Shown piece by piece: positions 2,579 to 19,400 of a stretch of DNA of 53,614 nucleotides. The DNA lies in assembly GCA_947246355.1 (NCBI GenBank), contig CAMXQX010000002.1, forward strand, positions 1-53,614, given 5' to 3'. The translations under genes and the position numbers were made by a program. Each line of letters begins with the position of its first letter. Position 1 is the stretch's first letter. The DNA is from an uncultured Bacillota bacterium (GTDB lineage Bacteria; Bacillota_I; Bacilli_A; RF39; UBA660). The notes under the pieces are model-generated. The model saw only the letters and a list, made by a program, of their open reading frames with translations, made no database searches and was not told the DNA's origin.

Positions 2579-4186
2579 CTATTTTGTAATGGTATACTCT
2601 ATCGCATAGGAACTGCTTGTATCAGATAAAACAGTAACATTGCTTTCTGTGATATTTGTTTTAAAGTAAGTATTTAAATACGCTACAATATCCATAACAG
2701 AGGTCTTTGTTGTATGAGATACAGATACCTTTAGCGTATTATTTTCTTTATTCTCAAAAGAAATTGTCATGCCGCTTGGAACAGTGAGTTCTTCAATTTC
2801 AAAAGTATTGTAATCCTGTCCCGTTGATGCGATCTTTACTAATAAATAACGATTGTTATCTTTATGTATAAAGTAGTCCGTAAATGCTACGGGAGGGGTC
2901 GATACATTCATATTATTTTTATCCCTTGTACAGTTTTTAGTAATGGAATCTTTAATTTCTTCTCTATAATAGATTGCTTGTTTGACTTCCAAAGGAATAT
3001 TACTATAATTTGACTCTAAACGACTTCTAAAGAGCATAAGCATATTTTTATATGTATCAAAATCAACTTGTGGTGGACTAACTAAATAATCGTTAGAACC
3101 GTTTAAAATCGTATTTTTAGTCAATTTGATTTGTGTATCTAGCGTCTTTGTGTCGTGATTTACAAGCTCCAATCCTTTTATACCCGTATTACCATAGAAA
3201 ATAACAGAATATATACCTTGTTTATCCGTAACGTATTTATAGATAGAATTCACAGATGTCGTATTATTAGGGTAAGCATATAAATTTAAGTAATGTTTAA
3301 ATGCTTGATTTAGTAGGTCTCTATCCGTCGTTGAAAAATACAAATTCATTTCATTTTGACCTATTTTAGTATGATTTTCGTAATAGGTTCTAGCATAGCC
3401 TACAAAATTATCTACGATATGAAATGTATATTCTTTTTTCGCACTATTGTAACTTATTTTAAAACCTAACAAGGCTTCATAATTATTTGGATGAATTAAG
3501 GCTTCTTTATTAGGATACGTATTTTTTACATAAGAAAGGATTTCTGTTTCACGATGAATAGATTTTGCATATTCTGTAATCCATTTTATAAAAATGTCAT
3601 ATATATTTTCTGAATATGGAATCGTTTTTGGGTTTTCGACGCCTATAGAAATGCGTTTTAAATAATCTTGATAACTTTCTTTAAACGTATATTTAATATA
3701 TGCTAACTTACGGTTTTCATCGACAATAATTTCATTTATCTTGGAAGTAAAATCAACATACTCTTTATTAGGATCAATTTTACATGTCATTGTTATGATA
3801 TTGGTATCCCCTTTTTCGGTATCAGGATTAAAAGTAATTGTCTTCGTTTTATCATTAACCGTCTTAACTTCTCCCTTTGAAATTACACTATCAAATGTAC
3901 AAGTACTAGGAATTGTAATTTCATAACGATCCTTTTTATTTACAATGGCTTTATTTGGTAAAAAAGTAAATTCTAATTTCGCTGTTTCTAACTTTGCTTC
4001 TTTTATTTCCATAGTATATTCATTATACATATTATAAAGATTTGCCTTATAAACCAGTTGCCCTCCATCCACATAACGTGAATAGGTCTTAGGTAAGTGT
4101 GTCAACCCAAAACTAGATAAAACAAGTAATAAAAATATTCCTAGCTTTAGATTCTTTTTATTTTCTTTCATCTTTTTCAAGTTCAT
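2579..4186 (-). CDS. Large secreted protein with a SipW-type (TasA-like) signal; putative minor or tip fibre component
   Basis: Start moved to M10 (GTGAGGAAG RBS), 10 nt after the upstream stop. The N-terminus has a basic region, a hydrophobic helix, then KTYSRYVDG, the same motif as the other two subunits. The rest has no domain I recognise. Confidence 0.6.
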   Translation of the reverse strand: MNLKKMKENKKNLKLGIFLLLVLSSFGLTHLPKTYSRYVDGGQLVYKANLYNMYNEYTMEIKEAKLETAKLEFTFLPNKAIVNKKDRYEITIPSTCTFDSVISKGEVKTVNDKTKTITFNPDTEKGDTNIITMTCKIDPNKEYVDFTSKINEIIVDENRKLAYIKYTFKESYQDYLKRISIGVENPKTIPYSENIYDIFIKWITEYAKSIHRETEILSYVKNTYPNKEALIHPNNYEALLGFKISYNSAKKEYTFHIVDNFVGYARTYYENHTKIGQNEMNLYFSTTDRDLLNQAFKHYLNLYAYPNNTTSVNSIYKYVTDKQGIYSVIFYGNTGIKGLELVNHDTKTLDTQIKLTKNTILNGSNDYLVSPPQVDFDTYKNMLMLFRSRLESNYSNIPLEVKQAIYYREEIKDSITKNCTRDKNNMNVSTPPVAFTDYFIHKDNNRYLLVKIASTGQDYNTFEIEELTVPSGMTISFENKENNTLKVSVSHTTKTSVMDIVAYLNTYFKTNITESNVTVLSDTSSSYAIEYTITK

Positions 4187-4196
4187 CACTTCCTCA

Positions 4197-4823
4197 CTAT
4201 CTCTTTTGTTCAATAGAATAATCTACTGTCATCACATTAAAATCTTGTTTTTCATTAAATATATATTTGGGATTTCCTGATTCATCCTTTACAATACCAT
4301 TAATGATATTTCCTTGTTTATCCTTATCTACTACCGTTTCGTCATACATAACGCTAACCTTATATATAGCTATGTCTTTATTTCCTGGGGAAATAGAGTT
4401 GCTAATTGTGAATACTTTATTTCCTTTTGCTTCACTTTCATTAGGAACAACTTTATCATCTTCTCCAGATAATGCAACTTTCGTAATTTTAAAATGAGTA
4501 TCTACTCGTATTGTCAATAATAATTCGGCATTTACTTCAATCTGACTTTTATCTACTGAAAAATAATATACAAGCTCCTCATAGGGACGATATTTCTTTG
4601 GATCAAAAGGGGTGGTTTCCTCTTTTTCACATTTCTCATCAGCACAATACTTAAGAGCAACATTAAATTTGGAAACTCTTGCTGTACTATCATCATCCAA
4701 CATACTTGAAATATACTTGGAATAGGTGATTACAGTTGTAAACAGCCCCATACAAATGACATACATAAATAACCATTTTCCTAAACTTTTTTTAAATTTC
4801 TTACTCTGTAATAACCCTTTCAT
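4197..4823 (-). CDS. Small TasA/BsaA-like secreted subunit (minor subunit candidate)
   Basis: 208 aa, RBS AGGTGG. N-terminus is a hydrophobic helix + ITYSKYISS...STARVSKF, parallel to GTYAKYVSE...EARVAKW of the major subunit. The C-terminal strand MTVDYSIEQ resembles ITLNIDITAEQ of the major subunit. Confidence 0.6.
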   Translation of the reverse strand: MKGLLQSKKFKKSLGKWLFMYVICMGLFTTVITYSKYISSMLDDDSTARVSKFNVALKYCADEKCEKEETTPFDPKKYRPYEELVYYFSVDKSQIEVNAELLLTIRVDTHFKITKVALSGEDDKVVPNESEAKGNKVFTISNSISPGNKDIAIYKVSVMYDETVVDKDKQGNIINGIVKDESGNPKYIFNEKQDFNVMTVDYSIEQKR

Positions 4824-4831
4824 TTTTCCAC

Positions 4832-5395
4832 CTACTTTTTCTTCTTCTTATTTAGATATTGTCTAAACTCTTCGTACTCTTTTTCTTCATCATCTAAAAT
4901 CAGATTTCCTTGTTTATCTATACTCACATAAATACCAAGAAAAATGCCATTTATCAAAATTAACACCGCGATCAAGGGGCTTTTTAATGCGCTTAGTAAC
5001 TTTTGGCCCCTACTCACTTTAAATACGTATTTCCCAACAATATTTTCTACATTCGTGGGTTGATCCTCTTTATTATTGTTGTCTCCTTTGGTTACCATTT
5101 CTACTTCATTGATAGAAATAATTCTATGGGTTACAAAGGAACCCTCTTTATCATAAAACGTTACGATATCTCCTTTTTTATAGGTTTTCTCTTTTGTATT
5201 GATAATAATCATATCCCCTATATGAAGGGTGGGTTCCATCGAACCAGATACAACTTCTAATGCTGTGTATCCCGCAATGGTTGCCATATCCTTTTTTAAA
5301 ATCCTTATACAAACAAAGCGATATATATTATAGGCAAACACTAAGGACAAAAGGAGGCAAAGCCCTACAACCAAGACCCTTTTTACTATTTTCAT
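4832..5395 (-). CDS. sipW: Signal peptidase I, SipW (archaeal/ER, S26B) type, short-tail paralogue
   Basis: 187 aa. SGSMEPTL catalytic Ser box, VTHRI His box, KGDNN box, N- and C-terminal TM helices. Matches B. subtilis SipW motifs rather than the Ser-Lys LepB type. Confidence 0.8.
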   Translation of the reverse strand: MKIVKRVLVVGLCLLLSLVFAYNIYRFVCIRILKKDMATIAGYTALEVVSGSMEPTLHIGDMIIINTKEKTYKKGDIVTFYDKEGSFVTHRIISINEVEMVTKGDNNNKEDQPTNVENIVGKYVFKVSRGQKLLSALKSPLIAVLILINGIFLGIYVSIDKQGNLILDDEEKEYEEFRQYLNKKKKK

Positions 5396-5404
5396 GCTAT
5401 AGAC

Positions 5405-8029
5405 CTATTCTTGGCAAGTTTTAATTTCTGTTTCAAAATCAAGGCCTATAGATAATCCATATTTATCATTAATACTTGCATCTGTCAATTTTTCTGCTGC
5501 GTGGTTTCCAATTAAAGTATCCAATTCATCATCAATTTCTTGCCACTTCCAAAAAACAGTAATGACAGCAGTTTCGTTAGGCGCTAATTCTATTTTTTCA
5601 TCCTCTTTAAATGGAATCATAGCAGTAAAACGATCTCCTGTTTCCTTTATTGTATCATCTTTTCTATTTAAAATCCAATATTTTTCACCAGGTTCGCCGT
5701 AATAGTATGTATAGTTATCGTCTTCAAAAGCCGAATAACGAATCATATAGCCCATATTTAGACAACCCTTATTAGGAATACAAATATTTTTTTCTTTTAA
5801 TGTCATACCTGTTATGGTAATCACATCATCACTTTCATTTGTAAAGTTCATTTTATAAGAACCTGCTGCTCCAGGATAAATGACTTTATCTTCCCCATAT
5901 TGTTTAAAATACTCTTCATTATGGAATAAATCAACTTCTGTTAACCATAGTGTTTTTTTAATAGGATTATCTACAATTGGACTAGAACTTGTCTCATAAA
6001 TTGCATACAATTCCAAATGATCCTGCAATTCTTTTATGATACTTTTATCTGTTCTATTATAGATAATTGGCCCATCAATAGATGTACTATATCCCTTAAA
6101 TTTATAGTATACACAAGTTCCATCTACCTTTCCTATCTTATATGGTTCATCGTACTTAGACAAATCTATACTTTCATCGTAAGATAAGAAGAATTCATAA
6201 GTATCTGTAAATTCGTTGAACAGTCCTCCATTGGCAGAAATGATAACATGGTACTTATTCCCAATTGCAATCTCTATATCAAATTCGGAAATAAGAATTC
6301 CTTGCACTTTTCCTACTACATGAATTTTTGAGTTTCCTATAGAACCTGCTTGAATTTTAAATGGAAGTGCATTGGGTTCCGTATGATCTCCCACATATTC
6401 TAAAGTAATATCTCCTGTGTCATTGGCACTATCTACTGTTAAAGTAACACAGTAACTATTATCATCGTTGCAAATGGAAACTTCTTTGGAATGATTAGAA
6501 TTTACGACATGCGTACTTTTTCCAGCAAACAAGTTGGTATTTAAAACAATGTCTCTTTCACCTGCGCCGTTTACATAACTCATATCGTATTTGTCTTTCA
6601 AAGAAGAAACGACATATTTATCAAATAAAATTTTGGTTTGTGCTTGTTTTCCATCATAAATTATGGATAGATTGGCTTGAGTTCCACTATTCGTCTTTCT
6701 TGGTGTTAACACAATATATCCTTTATGAACCTCAATTTCACATTCCTTTCCGTAAGCATCTAAATTAGCTTTAATACTAGCCAAATTGTATTCTTCTGTT
6801 ACATTGCCTTCTTCTTCTACAACATAATTAATAATGGATGGAATAGAGAGGTAAGTTGTGTAAGCACTATATTCAAAACGAATCGTACGTTTTGGATTAT
6901 AAATGCTAACTGTATATGTGTTTACTTCTCCGCTTTCGGATATAACAATAATCTCAAGATAATTATTTCCCTCAATTAGATGTAAATTATTCAAATCAAT
7001 AATCGAGATACCATTTAGTTTATATTGAATACTACTGGTTGCTACTTCCACCTCTGCCTTTAAAGACAAGTCCTTTTCATTATAACTAACACGTATACTA
7101 TAATTATTAATCTTTTGGTTAAATGATTGGTCTAAGTTATAATTTGAATTTAAAACCTCAAGTGATTTTAAATAATTATTTCGATTTTTGTTATTTTCAC
7201 TTGGTTTATCTTGACCAGGTTGACTTGGATTCGTATTAGGCTTATTTCCCCCAGGTTTATTATTGTTTGACTGGTTTACCTCTTGATCAATGACAGTAAC
7301 TGTATACGTATTGGTATATCTTTTTCCATTGTATGTAATCGATAAGGTAATTTTTGCAGTCCCCTTTTTATGGCCTGTAATTAAGAGTTTTCCTTGGCTA
7401 GCTATTGCTGTTGCAACGGATTCATCACTGGAAGTTACAGTAACATCCCCCTCCATTCCAATCAAACTATAGGATACCGTTTTTTGGTTATTTTGCCTTA
7501 AATTAATCGTTCCGCTATTACTAGATAAATCAATATATTTTTTAGAATCAGTAATGGTTACAGTTGCACTAGCTTCGTAAGTTTTTCCGTTGGTTGTTGT
7601 TTGTAGAGTAACGGTCACACTTCCCACTTTTTTAGGAACGATAACGACATGGCCCCCACTAACATAGCAATAAGCTATATCAGCATTACTTGTTGAACAA
7701 GTAAATCCATTTGGTGTTATTTTAGAATAAGAAAAACTAAGTCGACCGTCTTCTGCATCCAAAGCTATTTCTAAGCTATCCGTATCAAATTTTAATTCTT
7801 GATTGGTTATTGTTTCTCTATCATTGGTATCTTTATCAATAGGAATATCTTCTTCTTTTTTGAATACATTATTAATACTATCAGACAAAGAGCTTCCTAA
7901 TTTCCCAAAGAACTGAGATGTGCAACTACAGCTTGTAATTAAAAGAAGAAGTACAATGGCAAGTATAATCAATAAAATAATCTTTTTACCATCATCTTTT
8001 TCTTTATTATTTCTATTATAATTTTCCAC
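5405..8029 (-). CDS. Giant multidomain surface lipoprotein ending in a fibre-subunit-like domain (anchor/adhesin candidate)
   Basis: 874 aa, GTG start. Signal plus lipobox LLITSC. Two Big_2-like Ig repeats (e.g. SSDESVATA...GTAKITL), a Pro/Asn-rich linker, and a cadherin-like beta-sandwich (YLKSLEV...). The C-terminal ~180 aa share VxPGxxGxY, WKW and LDTxxGN motifs with the 252-aa major subunit. Confidence 0.65.
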   Translation of the reverse strand: MENYNRNNKEKDDGKKIILLIILAIVLLLLITSCSCTSQFFGKLGSSLSDSINNVFKKEEDIPIDKDTNDRETITNQELKFDTDSLEIALDAEDGRLSFSYSKITPNGFTCSTSNADIAYCYVSGGHVVIVPKKVGSVTVTLQTTTNGKTYEASATVTITDSKKYIDLSSNSGTINLRQNNQKTVSYSLIGMEGDVTVTSSDESVATAIASQGKLLITGHKKGTAKITLSITYNGKRYTNTYTVTVIDQEVNQSNNNKPGGNKPNTNPSQPGQDKPSENNKNRNNYLKSLEVLNSNYNLDQSFNQKINNYSIRVSYNEKDLSLKAEVEVATSSIQYKLNGISIIDLNNLHLIEGNNYLEIIVISESGEVNTYTVSIYNPKRTIRFEYSAYTTYLSIPSIINYVVEEEGNVTEEYNLASIKANLDAYGKECEIEVHKGYIVLTPRKTNSGTQANLSIIYDGKQAQTKILFDKYVVSSLKDKYDMSYVNGAGERDIVLNTNLFAGKSTHVVNSNHSKEVSICNDDNSYCVTLTVDSANDTGDITLEYVGDHTEPNALPFKIQAGSIGNSKIHVVGKVQGILISEFDIEIAIGNKYHVIISANGGLFNEFTDTYEFFLSYDESIDLSKYDEPYKIGKVDGTCVYYKFKGYSTSIDGPIIYNRTDKSIIKELQDHLELYAIYETSSSPIVDNPIKKTLWLTEVDLFHNEEYFKQYGEDKVIYPGAAGSYKMNFTNESDDVITITGMTLKEKNICIPNKGCLNMGYMIRYSAFEDDNYTYYYGEPGEKYWILNRKDDTIKETGDRFTAMIPFKEDEKIELAPNETAVITVFWKWQEIDDELDTLIGNHAAEKLTDASINDKYGLSIGLDFETEIKTCQE

Positions 8030-8062
8030 AAACTTCTCCCCATTTCTAGACTATAATTTAGT

Positions 8063-8101
8063 TTCCAAATAAGCCTATGAAAATCATAGGCTTATTTGGA
8101 A
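8063..8101 (-). terminator. Perfect 18-bp stem-loop after the major subunit gene (attenuator or mRNA-stabilising 3' hairpin)
   Basis: TTCCAAATAAGCCTATGA / AAA / TCATAGGCTTATTTGGAA. There is no strong T-tail on the minus strand, so this is possibly partial termination or a processing/stability element. It overlaps a second 7-bp hairpin at 8098-8115. Confidence 0.5.
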
Positions 8102-8131
8102 GTTAAATAACTTCCAGTTTATCATCGTGCA

Positions 8132-8890
8132 TTATGGTGTTACTGCCTCTCTTGTTTGTTCAGCAGTAATATCAATATTTAATGTAATTACATGACTTTT
8201 TGGAGCTGCTGCTATTTCATTACCTAATTTTGTATCAAGTTTATTTGTAGCATCATCAACCTCGAAGTCCCATTTCCAATAAATAGTATATGCTGTATTG
8301 TCAACTGTACCTGGAGCAAAAACTTTATTAGCTGTTCCAGAATATAATCCTTCAAGTGTTGTAAGCAATTGTTCAAAAGTTAATAAGTCATCAGCTGCTA
8401 CTGTATCAATATCGATGTTATCGCTTGTAGATACATAGAACTTGATTGGATCATATGTCTTTGTTGTGTCAACAGCAACACCTGTACTTGTGTCTGTAAC
8501 AACGTAAGTTGTTTTAACACCGTTTGTACTACCATCTGTATTTACTTTTAATGTATAATTTGTTTCGATAGTACCATCAAGAGCAAAGGTATATTGACCT
8601 TTTGTTCCAGGAGCTACAACGTTGTCTTTTGCACCTGTTACATCAGTTGGATCTAAATCTCTTGATAAAGCTTCAACAACTACACCATTTGCATCGTAGG
8701 TATAAGAACTCTTGAATAGATCCAATTCAGTATCAATTCCAGTTCCTAAACCAATTTGCCATTTTGCAACTCTTGCTTCATCTGAAAGGTTAATTTCAGA
8801 TACATATTTAGCATAAGTTCCACTTACAGAAAAACCAGTTCCAACTACTGCAATAAGTAGTGTTGCTAAGATTGCCATTTTCTTTTTCAT
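8132..8890 (-). CDS. Major TasA/BsaA-like SipW-dependent fibre subunit
   Basis: Start moved to MKKKMAIL behind a perfect AGGAGGTGA SD. Signal ends VSGTYAKYVSE (compare TasA GGGTWAAFND). The protein is Thr/Asp/Val/Gly-rich and Cys-free. Codon usage is visibly different from its neighbours. Hairpins flank the gene on both sides. Confidence 0.7.
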   Translation of the reverse strand: MKKKMAILATLLIAVVGTGFSVSGTYAKYVSEINLSDEARVAKWQIGLGTGIDTELDLFKSSYTYDANGVVVEALSRDLDPTDVTGAKDNVVAPGTKGQYTFALDGTIETNYTLKVNTDGSTNGVKTTYVVTDTSTGVAVDTTKTYDPIKFYVSTSDNIDIDTVAADDLLTFEQLLTTLEGLYSGTANKVFAPGTVDNTAYTIYWKWDFEVDDATNKLDTKLGNEIAAAPKSHVITLNIDITAEQTREAVTP

Positions 8891-8955
8891 AATTTCACCT
8901 CCTATCATTACTAGTTTTGATGAATAATTTGAGGAAGAATAACTTCCTAATCTAT

Positions 8956-8980
8956 GTAAATCTCTTGGTAGAGGATTTAC
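8956..8980 (-). other. Stem-loop in the 99-nt gap between sipW-1 and the major subunit gene
   Basis: GTAAATCTCT / TGGT / AGAGGATTTAC: 10 bp with one bulged G and no T-tail. Confidence 0.4.
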
Positions 8981-8989
8981 CCAATTTAA

Positions 8990-9754
8990 TTAAAACTTGT
9001 ATCTATCTTCATAATTGCTATCTTCTTTTTTTTCCTTTTCTTCTCTTAAGCGTAGCAATTCTAAAAACTCTTCTCTTGAAATTTGAGGCTGCTCCTTTTG
9101 TTGCATCTCTTTTAATCTTCTTAATTCTTGCAACTCCTCTTTTTCCAAACGTTCTTTTTCTTTTTCTTGGTACTCTTTCATCATCTTGAATTTTAAGTAC
9201 TCTTCTCTTTCTAGATTTTTATCTTTTCGCATTGAAATTGCAAAACAGATTACAAATACTATAGTAATAATGAGAGCCAAAGTTAAAACGGTTGTCGGTT
9301 CTGCTAAGCTTTTCATCATTGTTCCAAAGCCAGCAATACGAGTTACATATATTCCTTCTACATCATCTAGAGCAACTAAATTTCTATCTTGTGTACTATT
9401 GTTGTCTCCTTTTGTAATAAATTTTTTTGTTCCCTTATTTTCAACAACATCTATAATTCTATGGGTCGTAACTGTATTTTCAACATCCCTAAAGGCGATA
9501 ATATCACCTGTTTTTAAAACATTAGGATCAATCATCTTTGTAATAATTAAATCACCTTTATGAATTTTTCCTTCCATAGACCCCGATAGAACAATGAAGG
9601 GTTTATATCCGAAAACACTTGGGACTTTATCTTTGTTTGTAGTTGATTGAAACATAATAAATACATTCATTAATAAGATTGGTATTAAGAATATACAAGC
9701 AATGATAACTAGCCAACTACTAAATGATTTGTACCATTTTTTTCCCTTTTTCAT
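8990..9754 (-). CDS. sipW: Signal peptidase I, SipW type, with an 81-aa charged C-terminal tail
   Basis: 254 aa. LSGSMEGK Ser box, TTHRI, KGDNN, and a C-terminal TM helix. The tail is E/K/R/L-rich (EREEYLKFKMMKEYQEKEKERLEKEELQELRRLKEM...). Confidence 0.8.
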   Translation of the reverse strand: MKKGKKWYKSFSSWLVIIACIFLIPILLMNVFIMFQSTTNKDKVPSVFGYKPFIVLSGSMEGKIHKGDLIITKMIDPNVLKTGDIIAFRDVENTVTTHRIIDVVENKGTKKFITKGDNNSTQDRNLVALDDVEGIYVTRIAGFGTMMKSLAEPTTVLTLALIITIVFVICFAISMRKDKNLEREEYLKFKMMKEYQEKEKERLEKEELQELRRLKEMQQKEQPQISREEFLELLRLREEKEKKEDSNYEDRYKF

Positions 9755-9775
9755 CCTTCATCACTCCACTTGCTA

Positions 9776-12370
9776 TTAGCAATAAATTTTATTACCTCTA
9801 TTATATCTTAAATACTTTTTTTTGGCAAGTGGCAATTCATTGGTAAGTAATACCATTTTATTATTTTCTTCTTGTCTTCTTTGTGATTCTCTATTTTTTC
9901 TTTGTTCAAACCACTCTTTTGCAAGCTCGTCAACAATTTGTCTAGTTGCTTTTTCAGAAATAGGTACGCATTCCTGTGGTTGTGATTCGACTACGGTTTC
10001 TTCTTCAACTTTTTCTTCTGTTTGTGATTCAACTACAGTTTCTTCTTCAACTTTTTCTTCTGTTTGTGATTCAACCATAGTTTCTTCTTCAACTATTTCT
10101 TCTGTTTGTGATTCAACCACTGTTTCTTCTTCAACTATTTCTTCTGTTTGTGATTCAACTACAGTTTCTTCTTCCATTACTTCCATCATTGTTGTATCCA
10201 ATGAGAAAGTATTTTCCATTACAACCCAATCTGTATCATGACATTTATTACATTCTACTTGTTTCTCATTTGGATGGTCCCATGTATTTTCAATACCAGT
10301 TGGCTCCCAATTATGTTGTTCATGTGTTTTTGACTCATAAGAGCAAGCACTTCCATCACTTCTCTTATTTTCACAAGTTATCTTGACATAATGAGATTCA
10401 ACTGTATCTTTCTCATATTGAGGTTCGCTAAATTCATGAATATGCACAGTTTCATCATGTTTACATTTTGGACAAGTTACAGCAACTGTTTTTCCATCTT
10501 CTTTTGTAAATTCAGCTCCTGTTAAATCACAATCTTCTAATACTCCCTCAACCGCTATAGTATAATCACATGTAGCACAATCTTGTTTTTTTCCAAGAAG
10601 ATGTTGTCCATTAGAAACATATTGATAATCTCCTGTTTCTTCCACTGGCTTCATGGTATGGTCTCTTGTCATCTCACCAGCACAAGTCTCACATTTATTT
10701 TTTTCGCCACTTTCGTTATTATTTTCCCAAGGGCTATTAGAGCTATGTGCCTCTGTGGTTTTAGATATTTCTTCTTCATAATCGCAAGTTGCGCACACAT
10801 CTTTAACAATAGTTGTATGTGTTTTTCCATTTTGATCATCTACATGTTCTGTTTGGTGTTCCATAGTGTGATCTCTTGTATCCTCATGTTTACAATCTCC
10901 ACAAGTTCTTTTTTCATTTGCACCATTATTTTTAAAATCGCTATAATTACAGTTTTCATTTACTGATGAATGTGTTTCATAATTACAAGTATTACATTTT
11001 TGATCTTCATTCTTTTCATGTGTTCCATTATGATTATCCTTATACTCTGTTGTTATAGCTAAATCATGGTCTCTTGTTTGTTCAGCTTCACAATGATCAC
11101 ATGTCAATTTTTCTCCTGCTTCTCCTATAGAAGTCCAAGTTCCAACACAATCTTCTATTGTATCAAATTCTCTTTTTTCATCACATGTTTGACAATCATA
11201 CGTTATTCTTTCAATATGAGTTCCATCATTTTTTGCAATATAAGTTGTAGTTGAATTCTCATAGTCGAAACTATGGTTCCTTGTCATTTCATCGCCACAG
11301 CTTGGACATACACTTACCTCATAGTAAGCTCCATTCGATTTCCATATTTCATGAATACAGTCTTCTAAAGAAGTTTCCTCCTTTGTGTAATCACAAGTTT
11401 CGCATGTGCTTGTAGAGATAACTTTATGTTGATGATCTTCTCCAGCTTCATAACTTTTTTCCGTATTTATTTTGTGTCCACGCGTTTGTGTATACCCACA
11501 GCCGCTATCGCACTTACTTTCTTCTCCTTTTTCGAAAGCATTATAGTATTCACCACAATTATGAGGTTCTACTTTTTTTGAAATTTCTTCTGTATAATCA
11601 CAAGTATTACAAGTATTACCAATAATTTGTGTATGGGTTCCATTTTCGTTATCAAGGTAAGAAGTATACATTTCTACATCATGATCCCTTGTTTGTTCAT
11701 AACTACATTGGATACAAGAAGCAACTTCCCCTTCTTTTCCATTCGAAACCCAGTCACCATACTCACAGTCTTGTTTCTTTTTAATCGTTATTTTTTCACC
11801 ACAAGAACATTTTTTATTTGTAATAAATGTATGGGTTCCATCTTCATTAGACTTACAAACTTTACTAGTTACTTTAAAGTTATGTTCATGGTTATCCTCT
11901 TTGTCTTCGCTTTCTTTCTCTTCTTCTGAACTTTGACTTGGTTTTGGTTCAGATTGCGACTCTGTTTCTTTTTCTGTTTCTACTTGTGTTTCGGTCTCAA
12001 TTTCTGATGAAAATGCAATTGCAGACGTTTCTTCTTCTATAATTTCATTTTCATTGTCCCTTGCACTATTTTCAATACTTCTTTCTACATAGACAGACTC
12101 CTCTTCAGAAACCTCTTCTATAGTGGTAACTTCTTCTGTCTCTATAGATGTTTCTGTCTCCTTTTCTTTCGTAGATGGTAATCGAAAATTTTTATCCTCT
12201 TCCCCAAATTTCATAGTGATTTTTTTCGTTTTAGCATCTTCTTTAGCTAAACGTTGTATTTCACAACTGCCTATCCCAACTGCCAACAAAACTGCGGCTG
12301 CAGTTAAACCTGCTCTTTGAATTGCGTATTTTTTTTCTGATTTTTCTTCTGTAAATTCTTCTTTTCTCAT
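9776..12370 (-). CDS. Acidic lipoprotein with 7-8 tandem five-Cys (CxxC...C...CxxC) modules and a 14-aa C-terminal repeat array
   Basis: Start moved to MRKEEF (RBS GAAGGGGGA). Signal and lipobox AVGIGSC. The repeated ~65-aa module is GTHx(5-6)CxxCxY...C...W..G..GE...CxxC...TRDH. Five copies of EEETVVESQTEE(I/K)V follow. The first gene of the operon, ending 21 nt before sipW-1. Confidence 0.7.
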   Translation of the reverse strand: MRKEEFTEEKSEKKYAIQRAGLTAAAVLLAVGIGSCEIQRLAKEDAKTKKITMKFGEEDKNFRLPSTKEKETETSIETEEVTTIEEVSEEESVYVERSIENSARDNENEIIEEETSAIAFSSEIETETQVETEKETESQSEPKPSQSSEEEKESEDKEDNHEHNFKVTSKVCKSNEDGTHTFITNKKCSCGEKITIKKKQDCEYGDWVSNGKEGEVASCIQCSYEQTRDHDVEMYTSYLDNENGTHTQIIGNTCNTCDYTEEISKKVEPHNCGEYYNAFEKGEESKCDSGCGYTQTRGHKINTEKSYEAGEDHQHKVISTSTCETCDYTKEETSLEDCIHEIWKSNGAYYEVSVCPSCGDEMTRNHSFDYENSTTTYIAKNDGTHIERITYDCQTCDEKREFDTIEDCVGTWTSIGEAGEKLTCDHCEAEQTRDHDLAITTEYKDNHNGTHEKNEDQKCNTCNYETHSSVNENCNYSDFKNNGANEKRTCGDCKHEDTRDHTMEHQTEHVDDQNGKTHTTIVKDVCATCDYEEEISKTTEAHSSNSPWENNNESGEKNKCETCAGEMTRDHTMKPVEETGDYQYVSNGQHLLGKKQDCATCDYTIAVEGVLEDCDLTGAEFTKEDGKTVAVTCPKCKHDETVHIHEFSEPQYEKDTVESHYVKITCENKRSDGSACSYESKTHEQHNWEPTGIENTWDHPNEKQVECNKCHDTDWVVMENTFSLDTTMMEVMEEETVVESQTEEIVEEETVVESQTEEIVEEETMVESQTEEKVEEETVVESQTEEKVEEETVVESQPQECVPISEKATRQIVDELAKEWFEQRKNRESQRRQEENNKMVLLTNELPLAKKKYLRYNRGNKIYC
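9981..10175. repeat. 42-nt tandem repeat, about 4.6 near-identical copies, in frame within the Cys-repeat gene
   Basis: Unit TGTGATTCAACTACAGTTTCTTCTTCAACTTTTTCTTCTGTT begins at 9981, 10023, 10065, 10107 and 10149. Confidence 0.9.
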
Positions 12371-12475
12371 TCTATTTTCCCCCTTCAAAAATATTGGAAT
12401 GTTGAAAAGCAATATTTTGAAATCTAAAGGTGAATATGAATTCAACAAACCAAATCAAAAAAATGATTTAGCTCC

Positions 12476-12504
12476 AATATACAACTTTTTTTTATATTTG
12501 TCAA
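12476..12504 (-). promoter_or_regulatory. Candidate sigma-A promoter of the fibre operon
   Basis: Minus strand: TTGACA (12499-12504), 17 nt spacer, TATATT (12476-12481). About 100 nt upstream of the ATG at 12370. Phased A/T tracts lie immediately upstream. Confidence 0.5.
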
Positions 12505-12552
12505 ATCAAAATCAAAATTTTTTTAAATTTTTTTAAATTTTCTTTATTTTTT
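12502..12552. repeat. Helically phased A/T tracts (A3T7 every 10 bp, plus TCAAA(A) repeats)
   Basis: AAATTTTTTT AAATTTTTTT AAATTTT... read directly. T-runs start at 12518, 12528, 12538 and 12547. Confidence 0.8.
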
Positions 12553-12628
12553 ATAGAAAATAACACACACAAGTGAAAGACAATAGACAGTATTTTCTTT
12601 CTATGTTATTATAAAAATAGGTGATAGT

Positions 12629-13780
12629 TTGAAAGCTGTTGGTATTATTTGTGAATACAATCCATTCCACAATGGCCATTTGTATCACATAAATAAAGTT
12701 AAAGAAATGTATCCTAATCATAAAATTATAGTTGTTATGAGTGGAAATTTTACAGAACGTGGAGATGTAAGTATTATAAATAAATGGAAGAAAGCTGAAT
12801 TAGCCCATTTTCATGGATGTGATTTAGTGGTGGAACTTCCTTTTGCCTTTGCAACACAAAGTGCTGATATTTTTGCACAAGCTTCTATTTTTCTTTTAGA
12901 AGCTCTACAGGTAGATGTTTTGGTTTTTGGAAGTGAATCCGATAACATTGCATTACTCAAAAACATAGCCAAGGTACAATTAGAAGACAAACGGTACCAT
13001 AAGCTTATCTCCAATTTCATAGAAGAAGGAATTTCTTATCCAAGTGCTTTATCAAAAGCCATCTTTCAAATCACAGGAAAAAAAATCGAAAAGCCAAATG
13101 ATATTTTAGGTCTTTCCTATATAAGAGAAATTTATAAGCAAAACAGTTCTATTGAACCCATCTGCATTAAAAGAAACAATGATTTTTCTAGTAAAGATTT
13201 AACAGAAAATATAACAAGTGCTACAAGTATTAGACACGCTTTATATCACCAAGAAGATATCACCGATTATGTTCCTAATAAAACAGCAGAAATACTCAAA
13301 GGTCCTCTTTATTTCAATAACGACTTTTTCGCACTTTTGAAATATAAAATTTTAACGGACAATGATTTAGGTAAATACCAAACGGTAGAGGAGGGAATAG
13401 AGAATCGATTAAGAAAATATATATTAAACAGTAAGTCTATGGAGGAATTTATCTTAAAAGTAAAAACAAAAAGATATACCTACAATCGTTTAAAGCGAAT
13501 GCTAATTCATATTTTAGTAGGTTTTACAAAGGAGGAGGCCAACTCCTTTAAACATCCTGAATATATCCGAATTTTGGGTTTCAATTACAATGGACAAAAA
13601 TACTTAAATGCAATAAAAAACACAATTCCTTTACCCATTGTATCAAAATTTAGTTCCCTCAATCATCCTCTTTTAAAGTTAGAATTAAGATCCACCATTG
13701 CTTATGCTAGTATTTTAAATGAAGAAGACAAAGTAAAAACCATTGAGGAAGAATATAAAAATAGTCCTATTATGTATTAA
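12629..13780 (+). CDS. tmcAL: tRNA(Met) cytidine acetate ligase (YlbM/UPF0348 nucleotidyltransferase)
   Basis: 383 aa, TTG start after AGGTGA. The N-terminus KAVGIICEYNPFHNGHLYHINKVKE closely matches B. subtilis YlbM/TmcAL. Confidence 0.85.
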   Translation: MKAVGIICEYNPFHNGHLYHINKVKEMYPNHKIIVVMSGNFTERGDVSIINKWKKAELAHFHGCDLVVELPFAFATQSADIFAQASIFLLEALQVDVLVFGSESDNIALLKNIAKVQLEDKRYHKLISNFIEEGISYPSALSKAIFQITGKKIEKPNDILGLSYIREIYKQNSSIEPICIKRNNDFSSKDLTENITSATSIRHALYHQEDITDYVPNKTAEILKGPLYFNNDFFALLKYKILTDNDLGKYQTVEEGIENRLRKYILNSKSMEEFILKVKTKRYTYNRLKRMLIHILVGFTKEEANSFKHPEYIRILGFNYNGQKYLNAIKNTIPLPIVSKFSSLNHPLLKLELRSTIAYASILNEEDKVKTIEEEYKNSPIMY

Positions 13781-13797
13781 GGAAAAAAATAGTTATT

Positions 13798-13834
13798 AAG
13801 GAAAAAAATAGTTCAAATGAACTATTTTTTCCTT
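13798..13834. terminator. Bidirectional terminator between convergent tmcAL and the herA-like gene
   Basis: AAGGAAAAAAATAGTTC / AAAT / GAACTATTTTTTCCTT. The left arm is also duplicated as an 18-nt direct repeat (13777-13794 and 13796-13813). Confidence 0.6.
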
Positions 13835-15594
13835 ACAAACCAATTCGCTCGAATATCACAGCTACTGCTGGAAGGGCTTGGATTTGGCATATCTAGAGAA
13901 ATAATGACAGGAACCTTAAAAGCAGAACCAAAAGCAACACAAGTTCCTGGCTGTAATATTTTTATTTTTTTTATGGTCTCATTTGTGATATTTGGCACAA
14001 TTTCACGAATATATTCAATGTCTTTAGGATGCAACATCCTAAAAATTAAAAAATTAGAACACTGTGATAAGCAAGTCTCTGATAACTCAGAAGGTCTTTG
14101 CGAAATAAGGCCCAACAAAACACCATATTTTCTACCTTCTTTAGTAATACGTTCAAAAATATTATACCCTAGTAAAAAGTTATCATTATCATTTTGCACA
14201 TAACGATGCGCTTCTTCTAAAACAATGTGAAAAGGCATACTCGCACGATTTTTTAATGCTTTCGCATAATCAAATAATAACTTCGAATAAATTTTTGTAA
14301 TATTTTTTGCTAAACGGTCATCAATATAATTGATATTAAAATTGATAATTTGAGCTTTATATCCCTCTTTCGTTGTTAGTAGTGATTTGATATAATCTTC
14401 TCTTGTTATATAATTGGGATAATCAAAATAGATACTTTCATCTCCACTTGCTAAAGAATGCATTCGAACCTTTAATACATTGGCCTCATCGTAAACCTTA
14501 TCACTTTTAAGGACACCTTCTGAAATGAGGGCAAAGTCAAAAGCATCTTTTAAATCATTTAAATTGTATTTAAATGTTCCATTAGGTAAAGTTAAAACAT
14601 AATCATCGGTCAAATAAGAGGAAATAAAATTCATAATCAGTTCCATTTCTCGAATCTTACCGCTTGCATCAATATTCATACAATGCTTAAGAGGTCTTGT
14701 ATACCCTGGCTGTTCAATTAAGGTTTCTAGATTTAATTCGCTTGTATTATAATAGGATAAAATGGAAAAAATTTGGTCACGAATCGCAGTAGACGGCCTT
14801 CCACTAGATAATATATCAAGCAAAGCCCTCGCAATAATATCATTTTTACTCTTGATAACTTGTTTTTCTTCCTGTGCGAAAATAGTAACCAATTTTAAAG
14901 CTTTTTCAATAATTTGGATTTGAGAATGCTTTTCTGCCCCAAGGAGTAGAGCAATATCATCCACGCTAAGAAGCCATAAAGGAATTTTAAGAAGTTCTGT
15001 ATCTTTATCATCTACATTCGTGGTATAGGCTTTAAACTGAATTCCAAAAACTTTATCGCTTAGTTTTTCAAAAGCAGTATGGTATTCTCCATATGCATCA
15101 AAAACAAAAATGCTTGCTTTATAAGGAAGGGGGTTTTCCTTCGAAAAAAGATTTTGAAAAATTCTAGCAATTCCACAAGATTTTCCTGTACCCGTCGAAC
15201 CAAAAACCGAAAAATGTTGACTAAAAAATTTATTAATATTGACATGAATATCCATATTTTTATAAATAGGACTCTTTCCTAAATATAAATCTCTTGTATC
15301 CTCATAATTCGCTACACTAATAATGTTTTTCACTAAAAATTCAGGAACCAGTTCAACGATAGAAGAAAAACCAGGTTTAGAAATAACACCAAAAACGAAT
15401 GCAGAACCTTGCATCTGTCCTACTAAGTGAATATCGGCAATTTCATTTTTTATATTGATAATTTCTCCAATTACATTTTTTTCTTCTGTCTTTAAAGATA
15501 CATAATGATGAATTAATTCCCTACTTTCTAATATATCTTGTTTTAGTCTTACATAAATGATATTTTCCTCAACACCAACCACTTTTCCTATCAT
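13822..15594 (-). CDS. HerA/DUF87-family ATPase, paralogue 1
   Basis: Start at MIGKVVG (GGGAGG RBS), by analogy with paralogue 2. HAS-barrel-like N-terminus, Walker A GSTGTGKS, and a Walker B region HIVLEEAHRY. Begins about 20 nt after yqeH. Confidence 0.7.
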   Translation of the reverse strand: MIGKVVGVEENIIYVRLKQDILESRELIHHYVSLKTEEKNVIGEIINIKNEIADIHLVGQMQGSAFVFGVISKPGFSSIVELVPEFLVKNIISVANYEDTRDLYLGKSPIYKNMDIHVNINKFFSQHFSVFGSTGTGKSCGIARIFQNLFSKENPLPYKASIFVFDAYGEYHTAFEKLSDKVFGIQFKAYTTNVDDKDTELLKIPLWLLSVDDIALLLGAEKHSQIQIIEKALKLVTIFAQEEKQVIKSKNDIIARALLDILSSGRPSTAIRDQIFSILSYYNTSELNLETLIEQPGYTRPLKHCMNIDASGKIREMELIMNFISSYLTDDYVLTLPNGTFKYNLNDLKDAFDFALISEGVLKSDKVYDEANVLKVRMHSLASGDESIYFDYPNYITREDYIKSLLTTKEGYKAQIINFNINYIDDRLAKNITKIYSKLLFDYAKALKNRASMPFHIVLEEAHRYVQNDNDNFLLGYNIFERITKEGRKYGVLLGLISQRPSELSETCLSQCSNFLIFRMLHPKDIEYIREIVPNITNETIKKIKILQPGTCVAFGSAFKVPVIISLDMPNPSPSSSSCDIRANWFVRKK

Positions 15595-15615
15595 AAAGCC
15601 TCCCATTTCTTCTTT

Positions 15616-16614
15616 TTATAAAAAACTTTTTCTTGTATAAACATCCACGTTTTTTAAAGTATACACTTTTATTTTTGCTTTTTTCATGACTTTAATAAAA
15701 CCTAAGCCTTCGATAACAATATCTTCTTTTTCGTTAATGGTAATCTCCTTTTTCTCTAAATTCTTTAACTTGTCATTGTCTTTATAAAAACGTAAAATAG
15801 GCAAATTATTTGAAAGATAAAAAACAATATTGTTGTCTTCTTCTACTTCCAATCGGACAAGCGAATCTATCAAAAAAATTTGATCACATTTTACTTGAAA
15901 TATGGTCGGCTTTAATTCGGATTTAGGAACAATTCTTCTTAGCGTTTCGGAATCAACTTTATCAACTATACTATTTTCTACAAGTAAACCTGGGGTGTCA
16001 ATAAAGGTAAGCTCATCGCTGATAGGTATCTCGATCATATCTAAAGTAGTGGAAGGAAGAATAGAGGTTGTAATTCGATTTGTTAAATTGGAGTAATTAT
16101 AAATAATCTTATTAATTAAAGTCGACTTTCCTGCATTGGTAATTCCAACCACATAAACTTTATTGGATTTTTTATATTCAAATACAAGTTCCATCAATTC
16201 GTCTAAGTGATAATTATTTTTACTACTGACAATGATTTTATCCACAACATGTAATGGCAACGTATCAAAATAATGCAATAGTTTTTCTTCATAAATCTGT
16301 TTAGGAACCAAATCTCTTTTCGTCAAAACCAAAAGGACATCATTATGAATATATTGGCAAAGCTCATGAATGCCACCAATGTTTAATAAGTCAACAAGAA
16401 CAAGAACAAGGTCTTTGCTTTTATCTATTTTTTTAAAAATTTTGGCAAAGTCTTGATTTGTCTTAGCAACAACTTTATATTCATTGTAATTTTGGATGCG
16501 AAAGCACCTTTCACATAGTTTTGATTTATCTATATTTTCTTTCTTTATAAAACCTTCCTTATCTTCAAACTCACTCTGTAAAGATAAGCCACAACCTGTA
16601 CACTTTTTATTCAT
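15616..16614 (-). CDS. yqeH: Ribosome biogenesis GTPase YqeH
   Basis: N-terminal zinc motif CTGCG...CERCFRIQNYNE, circularly permuted GTPase (TKRD before GITNAGKST). Conserved yqeG-yqeH order. Confidence 0.85.
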   Translation of the reverse strand: MNKKCTGCGLSLQSEFEDKEGFIKKENIDKSKLCERCFRIQNYNEYKVVAKTNQDFAKIFKKIDKSKDLVLVLVDLLNIGGIHELCQYIHNDVLLVLTKRDLVPKQIYEEKLLHYFDTLPLHVVDKIIVSSKNNYHLDELMELVFEYKKSNKVYVVGITNAGKSTLINKIIYNYSNLTNRITTSILPSTTLDMIEIPISDELTFIDTPGLLVENSIVDKVDSETLRRIVPKSELKPTIFQVKCDQIFLIDSLVRLEVEEDNNIVFYLSNNLPILRFYKDNDKLKNLEKKEITINEKEDIVIEGLGFIKVMKKAKIKVYTLKNVDVYTRKSFL

Positions 16615-17125
16615 AGTATCTCTCCTTATAAAACAAACCCTTCTTCGACATCTTTCTAAAAATAGCTTCTTCTCTTTTGCGATGAATACGTGTTAAAAAA
16701 TTCGTATCACTCGCTAAAGGAGAAACAAGAATAGTTGTAATTCCCACTTTGTTTCCCCCTTTAATGTCTGTTAAAAGCTGGTCTCCAATTATAGCAACTT
16801 CACAGGGTTCTACCTTATATTCCTTCAGTACCTTTAAAAAACTTCTCTTACATGGTTTAAACGCTAAAAAAACAAAGGGTATTTTTAATGATTCTCCTAT
16901 TTTTTTCACTCGATTTTTAGGACCATTGGAAAACAATATTACCTTGAAGTGTTCTTTTAAAAATTCGATTTTTTCCTTTATTTCAAAATGAATATCTTGC
17001 TCTTTATTTTTTAATATTGTATTATCCATATCGATTAAAATCAATCGAATTCCTTTTTCTTTCAAGGAATCAAAATGAATATCTGTTATCTTGTTTTGAT
17101 AAATATCTGGTCTTACCCTTTCCAT
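16607..17125 (-). CDS. yqeG: YqeG-family HAD-IIIA phosphatase
   Basis: LILIDMDNTIL HAD motif I and GDQLLTDI motif. Overlaps the yqeH start by 8 nt. Confidence 0.8.
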   Translation of the reverse strand: MERVRPDIYQNKITDIHFDSLKEKGIRLILIDMDNTILKNKEQDIHFEIKEKIEFLKEHFKVILFSNGPKNRVKKIGESLKIPFVFLAFKPCKRSFLKVLKEYKVEPCEVAIIGDQLLTDIKGGNKVGITTILVSPLASDTNFLTRIHRKREEAIFRKMSKKGLFYKERYYE

Positions 17126-17175
17126 AGAACACTTCCCTTATATATATTTATTTTAGCATACAAAAAAAAAGAAAA

Positions 17176-17562
17176 CTAGTCTTTTCTTTTTTCAAATTTT
17201 TGTTTTATTATCCTTCTTTGTTTTTCAATTTCACCATATTGCTCTGTTTGCTCTAAATCAATAATGTCTTCTATGTCTTCCATTCTAAAAGGAATGGTCC
17301 CTATAATAATAGAAAAGAAAAGAAAAAAAGTAGCCAAAACATAATCCATTTTATCATTTCCTAAAACATAACAGGTAAGACTAGAAGAAAAAGCCATGCT
17401 TCCTGTTGTAAAACAAATTAACTTTTCTCTTAATTTTTTTTCCTTTTTTTCTAAACTAATAACTAATTTATGGTAATATTCCTTTTGTTTTTCTCTAGGA
17501 ATTCTCTTTAACTCCATCCATTTATCTAACAATACAAATGTTCTTTCTAAATTTTCTTCCAT
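17176..17562 (-). CDS. Hypothetical two-TM membrane protein
   Basis: 128 aa, perfect AAAGGAGGA RBS, two central hydrophobic segments. Confidence 0.6.
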   Translation of the reverse strand: MEENLERTFVLLDKWMELKRIPREKQKEYYHKLVISLEKKEKKLREKLICFTTGSMAFSSSLTCYVLGNDKMDYVLATFFLFFSIIIGTIPFRMEDIEDIIDLEQTEQYGEIEKQRRIIKQKFEKRKD

Positions 17563-17631
17563 AATCCTCCTTTAGTTATATGTACTACATCTTTTCTTTT
17601 CTCTTTCATACTTTATGATAGGTGATTATCT

Positions 17632-17820
17632 ATGCAAAACAATTGCAATCGTTGCAATCATAATAAGGGGTGTGGGTGTTGCTACCCTTGTATGCTTATT
17701 TTTATTATTTTAGCGTTATACCAACTCATTTTAACTTTTTTTATTCTTACAAGATTTAATTTTTTTCTTTTCTTTTTCTTCTTATTTTTAACTTTTTTAT
17801 TTTTCTTGTTTACGATATGA
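17632..17820 (+). CDS. Possible small Cys-rich membrane peptide (uncertain)
   Basis: 62-aa ORF with an AGGTGA RBS 7 nt upstream, in an otherwise empty 234-nt gap. The N-terminus CNRCNHNKGCGCCYPC has 7 Cys in 16 residues and is followed by a Phe/Leu-rich tail. The tail is partly antisense to ysxE, so it may be an artefact. Confidence 0.3.
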   Translation: MQNNCNRCNHNKGCGCCYPCMLIFIILALYQLILTFFILTRFNFFLFFFFLFLTFLFFLFTI

Positions 17821-19354: not shown

Positions 19355-19400
19355 CACATCATCTCCTTAATAAAATCATATTATAGCGTCTTTCAAAATA

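Follow-up and report, generated by a model that had tools for sequence, protein, structure and literature searches.

The window analyzed here, a 53,614-nucleotide (nt) stretch of DNA from an uncultured Bacillota bacterium (contig CAMXQX010000002.1), contains at 2579–12448 seven consecutive open reading frames (ORFs), all on the minus strand, which we call G1 to G7. An earlier note on this DNA had proposed the locus as a candidate SipW-dependent surface-fiber system with TasA-like subunits. Our analysis leads us to favor, with moderate confidence, the view that the locus encodes a signal-peptidase-dependent, envelope-anchored surface fiber, pilus-like in nature, whose subunits form an unnamed β-sandwich family. 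Dependence of the fiber on peptidases of the SipW type is likely, whereas homology of its subunits to TasA is not supported. The gene order given in the note, its spacings (9 nt between G4 and G5, 8 nt between G5 and G6, and 10 nt between G6 and G7), and a hairpin after the major-subunit gene are all borne out by the ORF coordinates and by RNA folding.

The putative subunit family of G3 and G6

The putative major subunit G3 (open frame 8132–8908, minus strand; likely start ATG 8890 after AGGAGGTGA; 252 residues) begins with a signal peptide that extends to VSGTYA↓KY (the arrow marks the cleavage-type site), followed by the conserved segment KYxSxxxxxDEARVAKW and a β-sandwich core with two helices. 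Its translation signal is a perfect AGGAGG Shine–Dalgarno site, which together with the flanking hairpin described below agrees with its earlier designation as the major subunit. Of its 336 close homologues, a single one carries a source name, “hypothetical protein”, and Pfam domains are absent from all of them. When 1.84 billion cluster representatives (clusters at 50% identity) were searched with a profile of the G3 family, 6,409 matched at E ≤ 1e-3; neither Pfam nor NCBIfam has a curated model for the family. The family is borne by many uncultured gut Firmicutes from mice, rabbits, ruminants, and humans.

The AlphaFold model of the G3 monomer is confident, with a predicted local distance difference test (pLDDT) score of 86.5. 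Comparison of this model with the solved structures in the PDB by Foldseek gave no match at E ≤ 0.001, the best having E 0.054. The 50 listed matches, out of 476 with E ≤ 10, are headed by weak ones that include the donor-strand pilins FocH, SafA, the PapG pilin domain, and PapK (all with E ≥ 0.05), as well as PapD-like immunoglobulin (Ig) domains.

The second member of the family in the operon is G6 (4197–4823, minus strand; 208 residues), which has a conserved N-terminal region, the cleavage-type site VITYS↓KY, the motif ARVSKF, and a C-terminal hxhxAxQ strand. Alignment of the G3 and G6 family profiles with hhalign (95.3% probability, E 2.1e-8, 90 columns) identifies G6, on sequence grounds, as a shortened paralogue of G3, in keeping with its proposed role as a minor subunit, and G6 was found in 56 related loci. 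A 16-residue segment located directly after the cleavage-type site is common to both proteins and better conserved than any other part of either family; in G3, hydrophobic residues occupy most of its alternating positions (Y35, I39, L41, A45, V47). The hydrophobic N-termini of G3, G6, and the large protein G7 all close with T-Y-(A/S) and then (K/R)-(Y/F), an ending that is kept in their orthologues.

Several Lys, Glu, Asp, and Gln residues that are common to the families are invariant or nearly so (K34/K49, E115, D225, and Q251 in G3; E96 and Q206 in G6). They might form a covalent lock of the isopeptide kind suggested for BsaA, or bind calcium as AbpX and cannulae do, but this is pure speculation. 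Searches of G3 against PDB sequences, with the single sequence and with the profile, returned nothing meaningful, the Vip2 matches at E 0.05–0.5 being spurious. We also rejected a type IV pilin reading, which weak ComP_DUS matches in 16 family members might suggest, because the conserved motif comes after the hydrophobic segment and not before it, and because genes for a pilus ATPase or platform are lacking.

Conservation of the locus

One genome per species was scanned, which yielded 264 G3 relatives, and 77 species-level loci were kept, nearly all of them from uncultured gut Bacilli, “Tenericutes”, and Clostridia. The gene order peptidase 1–G3–G4–peptidase 2–G6–large protein is found in about 55 of these 77 loci, and most of the others are broken by contig ends; the co-conservation on which the earlier note had staked its proposal therefore holds in this neighborhood survey. 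Within 1.6 kb of a G3-family gene there is a signal-peptidase gene in 78 of 85 cases in the fetched loci, the remaining G3-family genes lying at contig ends or having a peptidase that the search pattern missed. In clostridial loci, both peptidases are retained, along with a homologue of G3 and a protein resembling G6.

The clostridial variant (L073, L075, and L077, at about 8900–19200) has at the G7 position a giant protein of 1,372–1,789 residues, with Listeria–Bacteroides repeats in L073 and L077. Farther downstream, these two loci also encode a protein of 177–180 residues that matches TIGR04090, a model of the BsaA family, below its threshold (38 bits with E 1e-9, and 20 bits; cut-off 60). 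A link of G3 or G6 to these small BsaA-like proteins was considered and dropped, as there is no profile similarity between them.

The putative anchor protein in two lineages

The putative envelope anchor G4 (5405–8029, minus strand; 874 residues) consists of a lipobox, LITSC, an Ig-like/cadherin-like stalk (31.2 bits for Cadherin-like, 22.6 bits for Big_2), and a C-terminal G3-type domain of ~170 residues. The G3 family aligns with the C-termini of G4 proteins at 95.3% probability (hhalign, E 2.3e-8), and both contain the motifs DLF, V.PG..G.Y, and WKW..D.LDT.GN in identical order. The earlier description of G4 as a lipoprotein with a subunit-like C-terminus thus agrees with both the lipobox pattern and the profile alignment. 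The G3-type domain of G4 is, however, without the 16-residue N-terminal segment (KYxSxxxxxDEARVAK) of G3 and G6. Nothing meaningful was matched by the G4 sequence in the PDB.

Lipoboxes in G1 and G4 were called by the pattern [LVI][ASTVI][GAS]C closing an N-terminal hydrophobic segment. By pattern matching, L[IL]TSC or a close variant is present in 51 of 55 G4 orthologues, including that of the window. The G4 orthologues of L016, L031, L032, and L036 have LIT(T/S)GLTT instead of LITSCSCTS, and all four keep the FGRIG motif that comes after the lipobox position; these lipobox-less proteins are presumably held by an uncleaved helix.

In Clostridia, the third position of the locus is taken by a protein of ~300 residues in which a G3-like domain lies between an N-terminal transmembrane segment and a C-terminal anchor. 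The domain aligns with G3 at 99.1% probability (E 8e-19, 143 columns) and is again without the N-terminal segment. Two of the three proteins are anchored by a PxTG-like sorting signal, borderline for TIGR01167 (15.6 bits versus 15.9), whereas the anchor of the third is simply a transmembrane segment. Both the type of anchor and the end of the protein that carries it therefore differ between the Bacilli and Clostridia versions. Because two lineages join an acceptor-only subunit domain to an envelope anchor, the position-3 gene probably encodes the base of a polymer, and among the arguments from sequence we regard this one as the strongest.

Since related genomes are often labeled Tenericutes or Mollicutes, a wall-less host was considered as the cause of the lipoprotein anchor; this was rejected for the present organism, which has spore-coat/SpoVID-like genes and a teichuronic-type glycosyltransferase.

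Two SipW-type signal peptidases

G2 (8990–9754, minus strand; 254 residues) and G5 (4832–5395, minus strand; 187 residues) are paralogous signal peptidases I. Both pass TIGR02228, the model for archaeal/ER-type signal peptidase I (S26B), a family that includes SipW, with 95.4 and 92.1 bits, respectively, against a curated cut-off of 51.85, which upholds the claim of two SipW-type peptidases. Both fall below the cut-off of 190 for NF046067, the Bacillus SipW equivalog (101 bits for G2 and 80 bits for G5). Judged by these models, G2 and G5 are SipW-type peptidases and not SipW orthologues. G5 is also above the cut-off for Peptidase_S26 and S24, and G2 carries a long, charged C-terminal tail. Both proteins have the catalytic Ser (SGSM) and His (THR) motifs, which their orthologues keep well: both motifs in 60–63 of 63 for G2, and the Ser motif in 51 and the His motif in all of 56 for G5.

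What appeared to be a third SipW in some loci proved to be a bacterial P-type signal peptidase that adjoins a protein with an ordinary signal peptide. Eight Bacilli-type loci are extended past the G7 position by such a P-type peptidase (L008, L011, L017, L021, L026, L033, L043, and L068), and in 7 of these 8 the next gene encodes a further protein of 480–1,013 residues with an ordinary signal peptide (...GTFVFA↓NP). Genomes with the full operon also frequently have an orphan second G3 paralogue of 214–243 residues (L019, L027 at about 10001–10645, L034, L044, and L025); this is followed by a 175-residue bacterial P-type signal peptidase I, which is not of the SipW type.

The large protein G7 and the Cys-rich protein G1

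G7 (open frame 2579–4213, minus strand; ATG 4186 after GAGGAAG; 535 residues, or 530 in public gene calls) has an N-terminal hydrophobic helix, the sequence PKTYS↓RY, a β domain, an α/β domain, and a C-terminal β domain. The earlier note had counted it among the fiber subunits. The signal-end motif is, however, the sole feature that it shares with G3 and G6, and its fold instead includes an adhesin-type Ig domain. Foldseek comparison of the AlphaFold model (pLDDT 85; predicted template modeling score, pTM, 0.59) with the PDB gave 17 matches at E ≤ 0.001, from E 6e-5 (ACE19) to 1e-3, to Ig domains of the MSCRAMM/CnaA type from collagen adhesins and Gram-positive pilins, including ACE19, Cnm N2, SpaD, EbpC, CNA, and ClfB. 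The first five of these lead the matches, with probability 1.00 over about 140 columns, and the template modeling (TM) scores of 0.2–0.5, normalized to target length, indicate resemblance at the domain level. On the basis of this model, G7 is a candidate tip or adhesin protein. It has no Pfam match. Related loci encode at this position a protein of about 350–1,200 residues, mostly 500–870, and a match to the G7 sequence is detectable in about 20 of them; a profile search intended to widen the family gained just two truncated relatives.

At the other end of the operon, G1 (open frame 9776–12448, minus strand; likely start ATG 12373 after GAAGGGGG; 865 residues) is an acidic, Cys/His-rich protein whose N-terminal hydrophobic segment ends in the lipobox-like IGSC. 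It contains seven tandem Cys modules of 60–74 residues each (H...CxxC...C...CxxC...TR[DGN]H, the seventh ending in TVHIH), and both modules and hydrophobic segment can be read directly in the sequence, in agreement with its earlier description as a membrane-tethered Cys-module protein. On the 3' side of the modules, a DNA repeat at 9980–10174 (42 nt × 4.6 copies, 94% matches) encodes five acidic 14-residue repeats, EEETVVESQTEE(I/K)V, near the C-terminus of the protein, and is likely to be a site of length variation. G1 has no Pfam, NCBIfam, or PDB sequence match. In most related loci, the gene immediately preceding that of the first peptidase encodes an acidic, Cys-rich protein (9–65 Cys) that starts with a hydrophobic segment or, in many cases, carries a lipobox; the sequence of this protein diverges fast.

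RNA hairpins around the G3 gene

The G3 cistron is flanked on both sides by conserved RNA structures. Between G3 and G4 (8056–8115, minus strand) lies a hairpin of −33.1 kcal/mol (z −6.6) with a perfect 18-bp stem, TTCCAAATAAGCCTATGA/TCATAGGCTTATTTGGAA. On its 5' side, it is overlapped by a small hairpin, GGAAGTT-ATTT-AACTTCC, and because the two have four bases in common, alternative folds of the element are possible. There is no U-tract downstream of the hairpin.

Each of the 62 loci that retain the G3–G4 junction has a strong stem there. It is conserved in sequence (GGAAGTTATTTAACTTCCAAATAAGCCTATGA-loop-TCATAGGYTTATTTGGAAAYTAAAT) and shows compensatory double changes in 9 of 16 pairs. A 21-mer of the hairpin is shared letter for letter by the window, 17 other species-level loci, and 2 metagenome contigs, always between the homologues of G3 and G4; the window and each of the 17 loci have one copy of it, and the G3 proteins of these species are only about 33–55% identical. 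Since the exact 21-mer is kept across species with diverged G3 proteins, its conservation would imply sequence-specific recognition by some factor.

The leader of G3, in the G2–G3 spacer, contains a second conserved hairpin (8956–8980, minus strand), which has the form GTAAAY-variable stem-GTTTAC followed by ATAGAT; in the alignment of 67 loci it reads GGTAAAY-variable stem-GTTTACATAGAT. Its basal stem is almost invariant, with compensatory changes in 2 of 6 predicted pairs, and its upper stem, as read by eye, varies yet stays complementary. A smaller leader hairpin, GGAAG...CTTCC (8932–8948, minus strand), was found by pattern in only 12 of the 67 loci. Rfam holds no family for either of the two conserved hairpins, the sole match being a chance microRNA (E 0.31). 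We considered an internal sigma-70 promoter in the G2–G3 spacer and rejected it, because no hexamer suitable as a −10 element is correctly spaced from the conserved TTTACA. The RNA element that flanks G3 is a candidate new regulatory motif.

In chaperone–usher operons such as that of papA, a stem-loop after the major pilin gene gives an excess of major pilin mRNA. The present operon is similar in having a strong hairpin immediately downstream of the major-subunit cistron, ahead of the minor-subunit genes. It differs in that the hairpin is conserved in sequence across species (at about 35% identity of G3) and lacks a U-tract, and in having both a competing small 5' hairpin and a conserved 5' leader hairpin.

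A model for fiber assembly

We propose that G3, G6, and G7, whose signals are without twin arginine, would be exported by Sec and, by analogy with TasA, cleaved after T-Y-(A/S) by G2 or G5. The N-terminal segment freed in this way (KYVSEINLSDEARVAKW in G3) would then insert as a donor strand into the neighboring subunit. G4 would serve as an acceptor-only base, held in the membrane by a lipid or an uncleaved helix and lifted through the wall on its Ig-like stalk. The resulting fiber would have G7 as its distal tip adhesin, G6 as adaptor, G3 as the repeated shaft, and G4 as base, with G2 perhaps dedicated to G3, and G5 to G6 and G7. G1 would be a metal-binding, membrane-tethered accessory protein, and both hairpins may raise the amount of G3 mRNA over that of the other genes through processing, stabilization, or partial termination.

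Rather more tentatively, and with somewhat less than even confidence, we suggest that the locus represents an independent class of Gram-positive pilus. This class would be distinguished by a fold unrelated to those of TasA and the sortase pilins, by paired SipW-type peptidases, by N-terminal strand insertion with neither chaperone nor sortase, and by a lipoprotein root with an acceptor-only last domain; it would be widespread in uncultured gut Bacilli and Clostridia, and its stoichiometry would be set by a sequence-conserved RNA element recognized by a factor. If these structures are indeed adhesive fibers, they would constitute a major unrecognized colonization structure of the gut microbiota and a bacterial counterpart of the archaeal filaments known as tafi. 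Several features open the rules of assembly to direct test: the pairing of the peptidases, the way in which lipid, transmembrane, and PxTG-type anchors replace one another from lineage to lineage, and the conserved hairpins at the major-subunit gene.

Relation to TasA, BsaA, and other known systems

The best-surviving alternative is that G3 and its relatives are extremely divergent members of the TasA/BsaA superfamily, and that their product is a largely shed biofilm-matrix scaffold and not a discrete, anchored pilus. SipW-type peptidases do adjoin the subunits, the T-x-A motif and the C-terminal hxhxA(T/E)Q strand recall TasA, and one of the small clostridial proteins has the sub-threshold TIGR04090 match mentioned above (E 1e-9, 38 bits versus a cut-off of 60). 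The BsaA/TasA family is, moreover, very divergent and includes multi-paralogue operons with anchors (PMC11580942). We nevertheless consider this alternative unlikely, as no hidden Markov model (HMM), profile–profile, or Foldseek comparison links G3 or G6 to TasA or BsaA. Peptidase_M73 (PF12389) matches none of G3, G6, and G7 at E ≤ 0.1 and none of 70 G3-family members at E ≤ 1, and neither TIGR04088 nor TIGR04090 matches any window protein or any of the 70 G3 relatives. The G3 family profile finds no TasA among PDB sequences, in the copy of which the TasA entries 8AUR and 5OF1 are both present; hhalign aligns G3 with TasA over only 16 C-terminal columns, corresponding to the last strand (hxhxAxQ), at 1.6% probability; and neither 8AUR nor 5OF1 is among the 50 Foldseek matches listed for G3 (of 476 with E ≤ 10). 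The label “TasA-like” is therefore supported by none of these tests, and the earlier note had itself named the lack of a TasA fold as grounds for abandoning it, although a very distant relation may still exist. The conservation of an anchor with a subunit-type domain in two lineages also speaks for attachment over shedding.

The resemblance that remains is one of processing site and gene neighborhood: the cleavage-type site is T-Y-[AS]↓[KR]-[YF] here and T-W-A↓A-F in TasA, whose mature chain in 8AUR begins directly after GGGTWA, and a SipW-type peptidase adjoins in both cases. As in the tapA-sipW-tasA operon of B. subtilis, the peptidase gene lies beside its substrates, which share a T-x-A motif with an aromatic residue at +2, and there is an accessory protein with a subunit-related part and a proposed chaperone-free donor-strand polymerization (PMC9674648, PMC10151520). 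The present locus differs in having seven genes as opposed to three, two peptidases, and no match to Peptidase_M73 or the TasA fold; in addition, TapA donates a strand, whereas the putative anchor here would be acceptor-only. The sipW-bsaA-bsaB-bsaC locus of C. perfringens likewise combines SipW with paralogous subunits in one operon (PMC7395162, PMC11580942). BsaA oligomers are reported to be membrane-anchored and not wall-linked, the family is often found near LPxTG proteins and signal peptidases (PMC7395162, PMC11580942), and there are reports of operons in which several BsaA/TasA paralogues are combined with anchors and signal peptidases (PMC11580942). In contrast, there is no TIGR04090 match, von Willebrand A protein, or link to type IV pilus genes here, and the N-E-K isopeptide triad is not evident in G3, although K, E, D, and Q residues elsewhere in the protein are invariant.

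The closest architectural parallel is provided by the Tat-fimbriae, or tafi, of Haloarcula hispanica, linear, heteromeric filaments comprising a tip (TafC), an adaptor (TafE), a core (TafA), and an anchor (TafF), with roles that have been shown or modeled; the locus also encodes a signal peptidase I, TafD, which is required to process the major subunit (PMC11821415). A subunit-like domain of TafF takes the donor strand of the core subunit, and TafF has a membrane-spanning end (PMC11821415). The likeness, which is one of architecture and not of homology, extends to the dedicated peptidase, the major subunit, the subunit-like minor proteins, and the anchor with a subunit-like domain, and the clostridial position-3 proteins even share the topology of TafF, a subunit-like domain followed by a C-terminal anchor. 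Differences are also apparent. Tafi are archaeal and exported by Tat, whereas the signals here are without twin arginine; there is one peptidase in place of two paralogues; and neither the Cys-module partner nor the lipoprotein-type N-terminal anchor with a long Ig stalk seen in the Bacilli form has a counterpart. Furthermore, tafi subunits have been placed in the TasA superfamily (bioRxiv 10.64898/2026.01.04.697558), to which G3 and G6 have no detectable similarity.

The AbpX loci of archaea and bacteria are similar in being large clusters with major and minor subunits, a predicted tip, and a TIGR02228-type peptidase, and in bacteria their SLH or LPXTG anchors are modeled to join the fiber by strand complementation (bioRxiv 10.64898/2026.01.04.697558). 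For their peptidases, however, ten transmembrane helices and a partner with DUF5305 have been described, whereas G2 and G5 are small (187–254 residues), and their subunit family is unlike that of G3. As for sortase-dependent pili, the seven proteins of the window include no sortase match and no LPXTG signal. Type V pili occur in diderm bacteria, and all their subunits are lipoprotein precursors cut by gingipain-type proteases; we compared them with the G3 system by description. A lipoprotein anchor subunit holds the strand-exchange polymer of these pili (Bacteroidia, Fim/Mfa), and proteolytic loss of the N-terminal part triggers polymerization (PMC13655056).

The earlier note had regarded the architecture as unprecedented. 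It is not, because tafi, the AbpX loci, and the BsaA/TasA operons combine similar parts; indeed, a tip, an adaptor, a core, an anchor with a subunit-like domain, and a dedicated peptidase are known from tafi (PMC11821415) and AbpX loci (bioRxiv 10.64898/2026.01.04.697558). What differs from the known systems is the subunit family with no link to TasA, the two peptidase paralogues, the lipoprotein-type anchor, the Cys-module partner, and the conserved RNA hairpins. Our literature search found no paper describing this system or the G3 family.

Weighing the fiber model

Several points weigh against the proposed fiber. There is no significant likeness in sequence or fold to TasA, BsaA, or any solved pilin, and the related loci all come from metagenome-assembled genomes. 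Cleavage of G3 after T-Y-A↓K is predicted by analogy, and the matching of peptidases to substrates is purely inferred. The lipobox Cys is replaced by Gly in the four G4 orthologues mentioned above. Whereas the components, their homologies, and their conservation are seen directly, we infer from sequence the cleavage, polymerization, strand exchange, and subunit order. Finally, the AlphaFold monomer packs DEARVAKW, and residues 41–54 as a whole, confidently onto G3's own domain, so that in this model the segment could be an ordinary first strand instead of a donor strand.

The last point is also the main attraction of a second alternative, which we consider still less probable than a shed matrix, namely that the proteins form a non-polymerizing surface coat or adhesin complex. 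G3 would then be an abundant secreted, wall-associated protein that binds G4 and G7 through ordinary contacts between domains, or would form a two-dimensional layer, with the N-terminal segment as its first strand. This would sit well with the resemblance of G4 and G7 to typical multidomain Gram-positive surface proteins, and polymerization of G3 is itself conjectural. Against it stand the anchors of two lineages, from which precisely the 16 N-terminal residues are missing although the domain is otherwise retained, and the conservation of this segment, which is higher than that of any other part of G3 and G6. Pilus operons, moreover, typically have dedicated peptidases and a hairpin that tunes stoichiometry.

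TasA was first described as a spore-coat-associated, SipW-dependent protein, and PDB entry 5OF1 names it “Spore coat-associated protein N”. That the present system is a spore-associated appendage or coat component is nonetheless highly improbable: sporulation genes do lie 5–7 kb past the promoter end of the operon (YsxE-like and SpoVID-like, 17797–19357), but the one site upstream that resembles a promoter belongs to the vegetative sigma-70 type, the adjoining genes serve housekeeping and defense, and the system is also found in many small genomes labeled Tenericutes or Mollicutes.

Transcription signals and neighboring genes

The promoter-like site is a candidate sigma-70-type sequence, TTGACA-17-TATATT, at 12476–12504 on the minus strand upstream of G1, which agrees with the consensus at 11 of 12 positions. 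The earlier note had assigned the operon promoter to this site. The sequence is indeed there, but such matches are no more common in this AT-rich region than in shuffled sequences (50 found versus 53 expected), and its role as the operon promoter is, as judged by sequence, plausible. The terminator that the note placed at the other end fares similarly, in that a hairpin with a T-run is present at 2521–2568 on the minus strand but is weak (−11.3 kcal/mol, z −2.2) and was not called in our terminator scan.

Directly downstream of the operon, at 146–2428 on the minus strand, lies a two-gene anti-phage system of the PARIS type, consisting of an AriA-like ATPase (1079–2428; PADLOC AriA, E 8e-32) and an AriB-like DUF4435/Toprim protein (146–1066; AriB, E 4.5e-37). 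Farther upstream of the operon, sub-threshold matches to the spore-coat proteins YsxE/CotS and to the LysM end of SpoVID are found at 17797–19357 on the minus strand. Because of these matches, a wall-less host is argued against, and the sequence suggests a walled, spore-forming Firmicute. A HerA-type ATPase is encoded at 13822–15606 on the minus strand (PADLOC HerA, 376 bits, E 6e-113), with no obvious defense partner gene seen; its gene is flanked by those of a TmcAL-like nucleotidyltransferase (12629–13780) and the GTPase YqeH.

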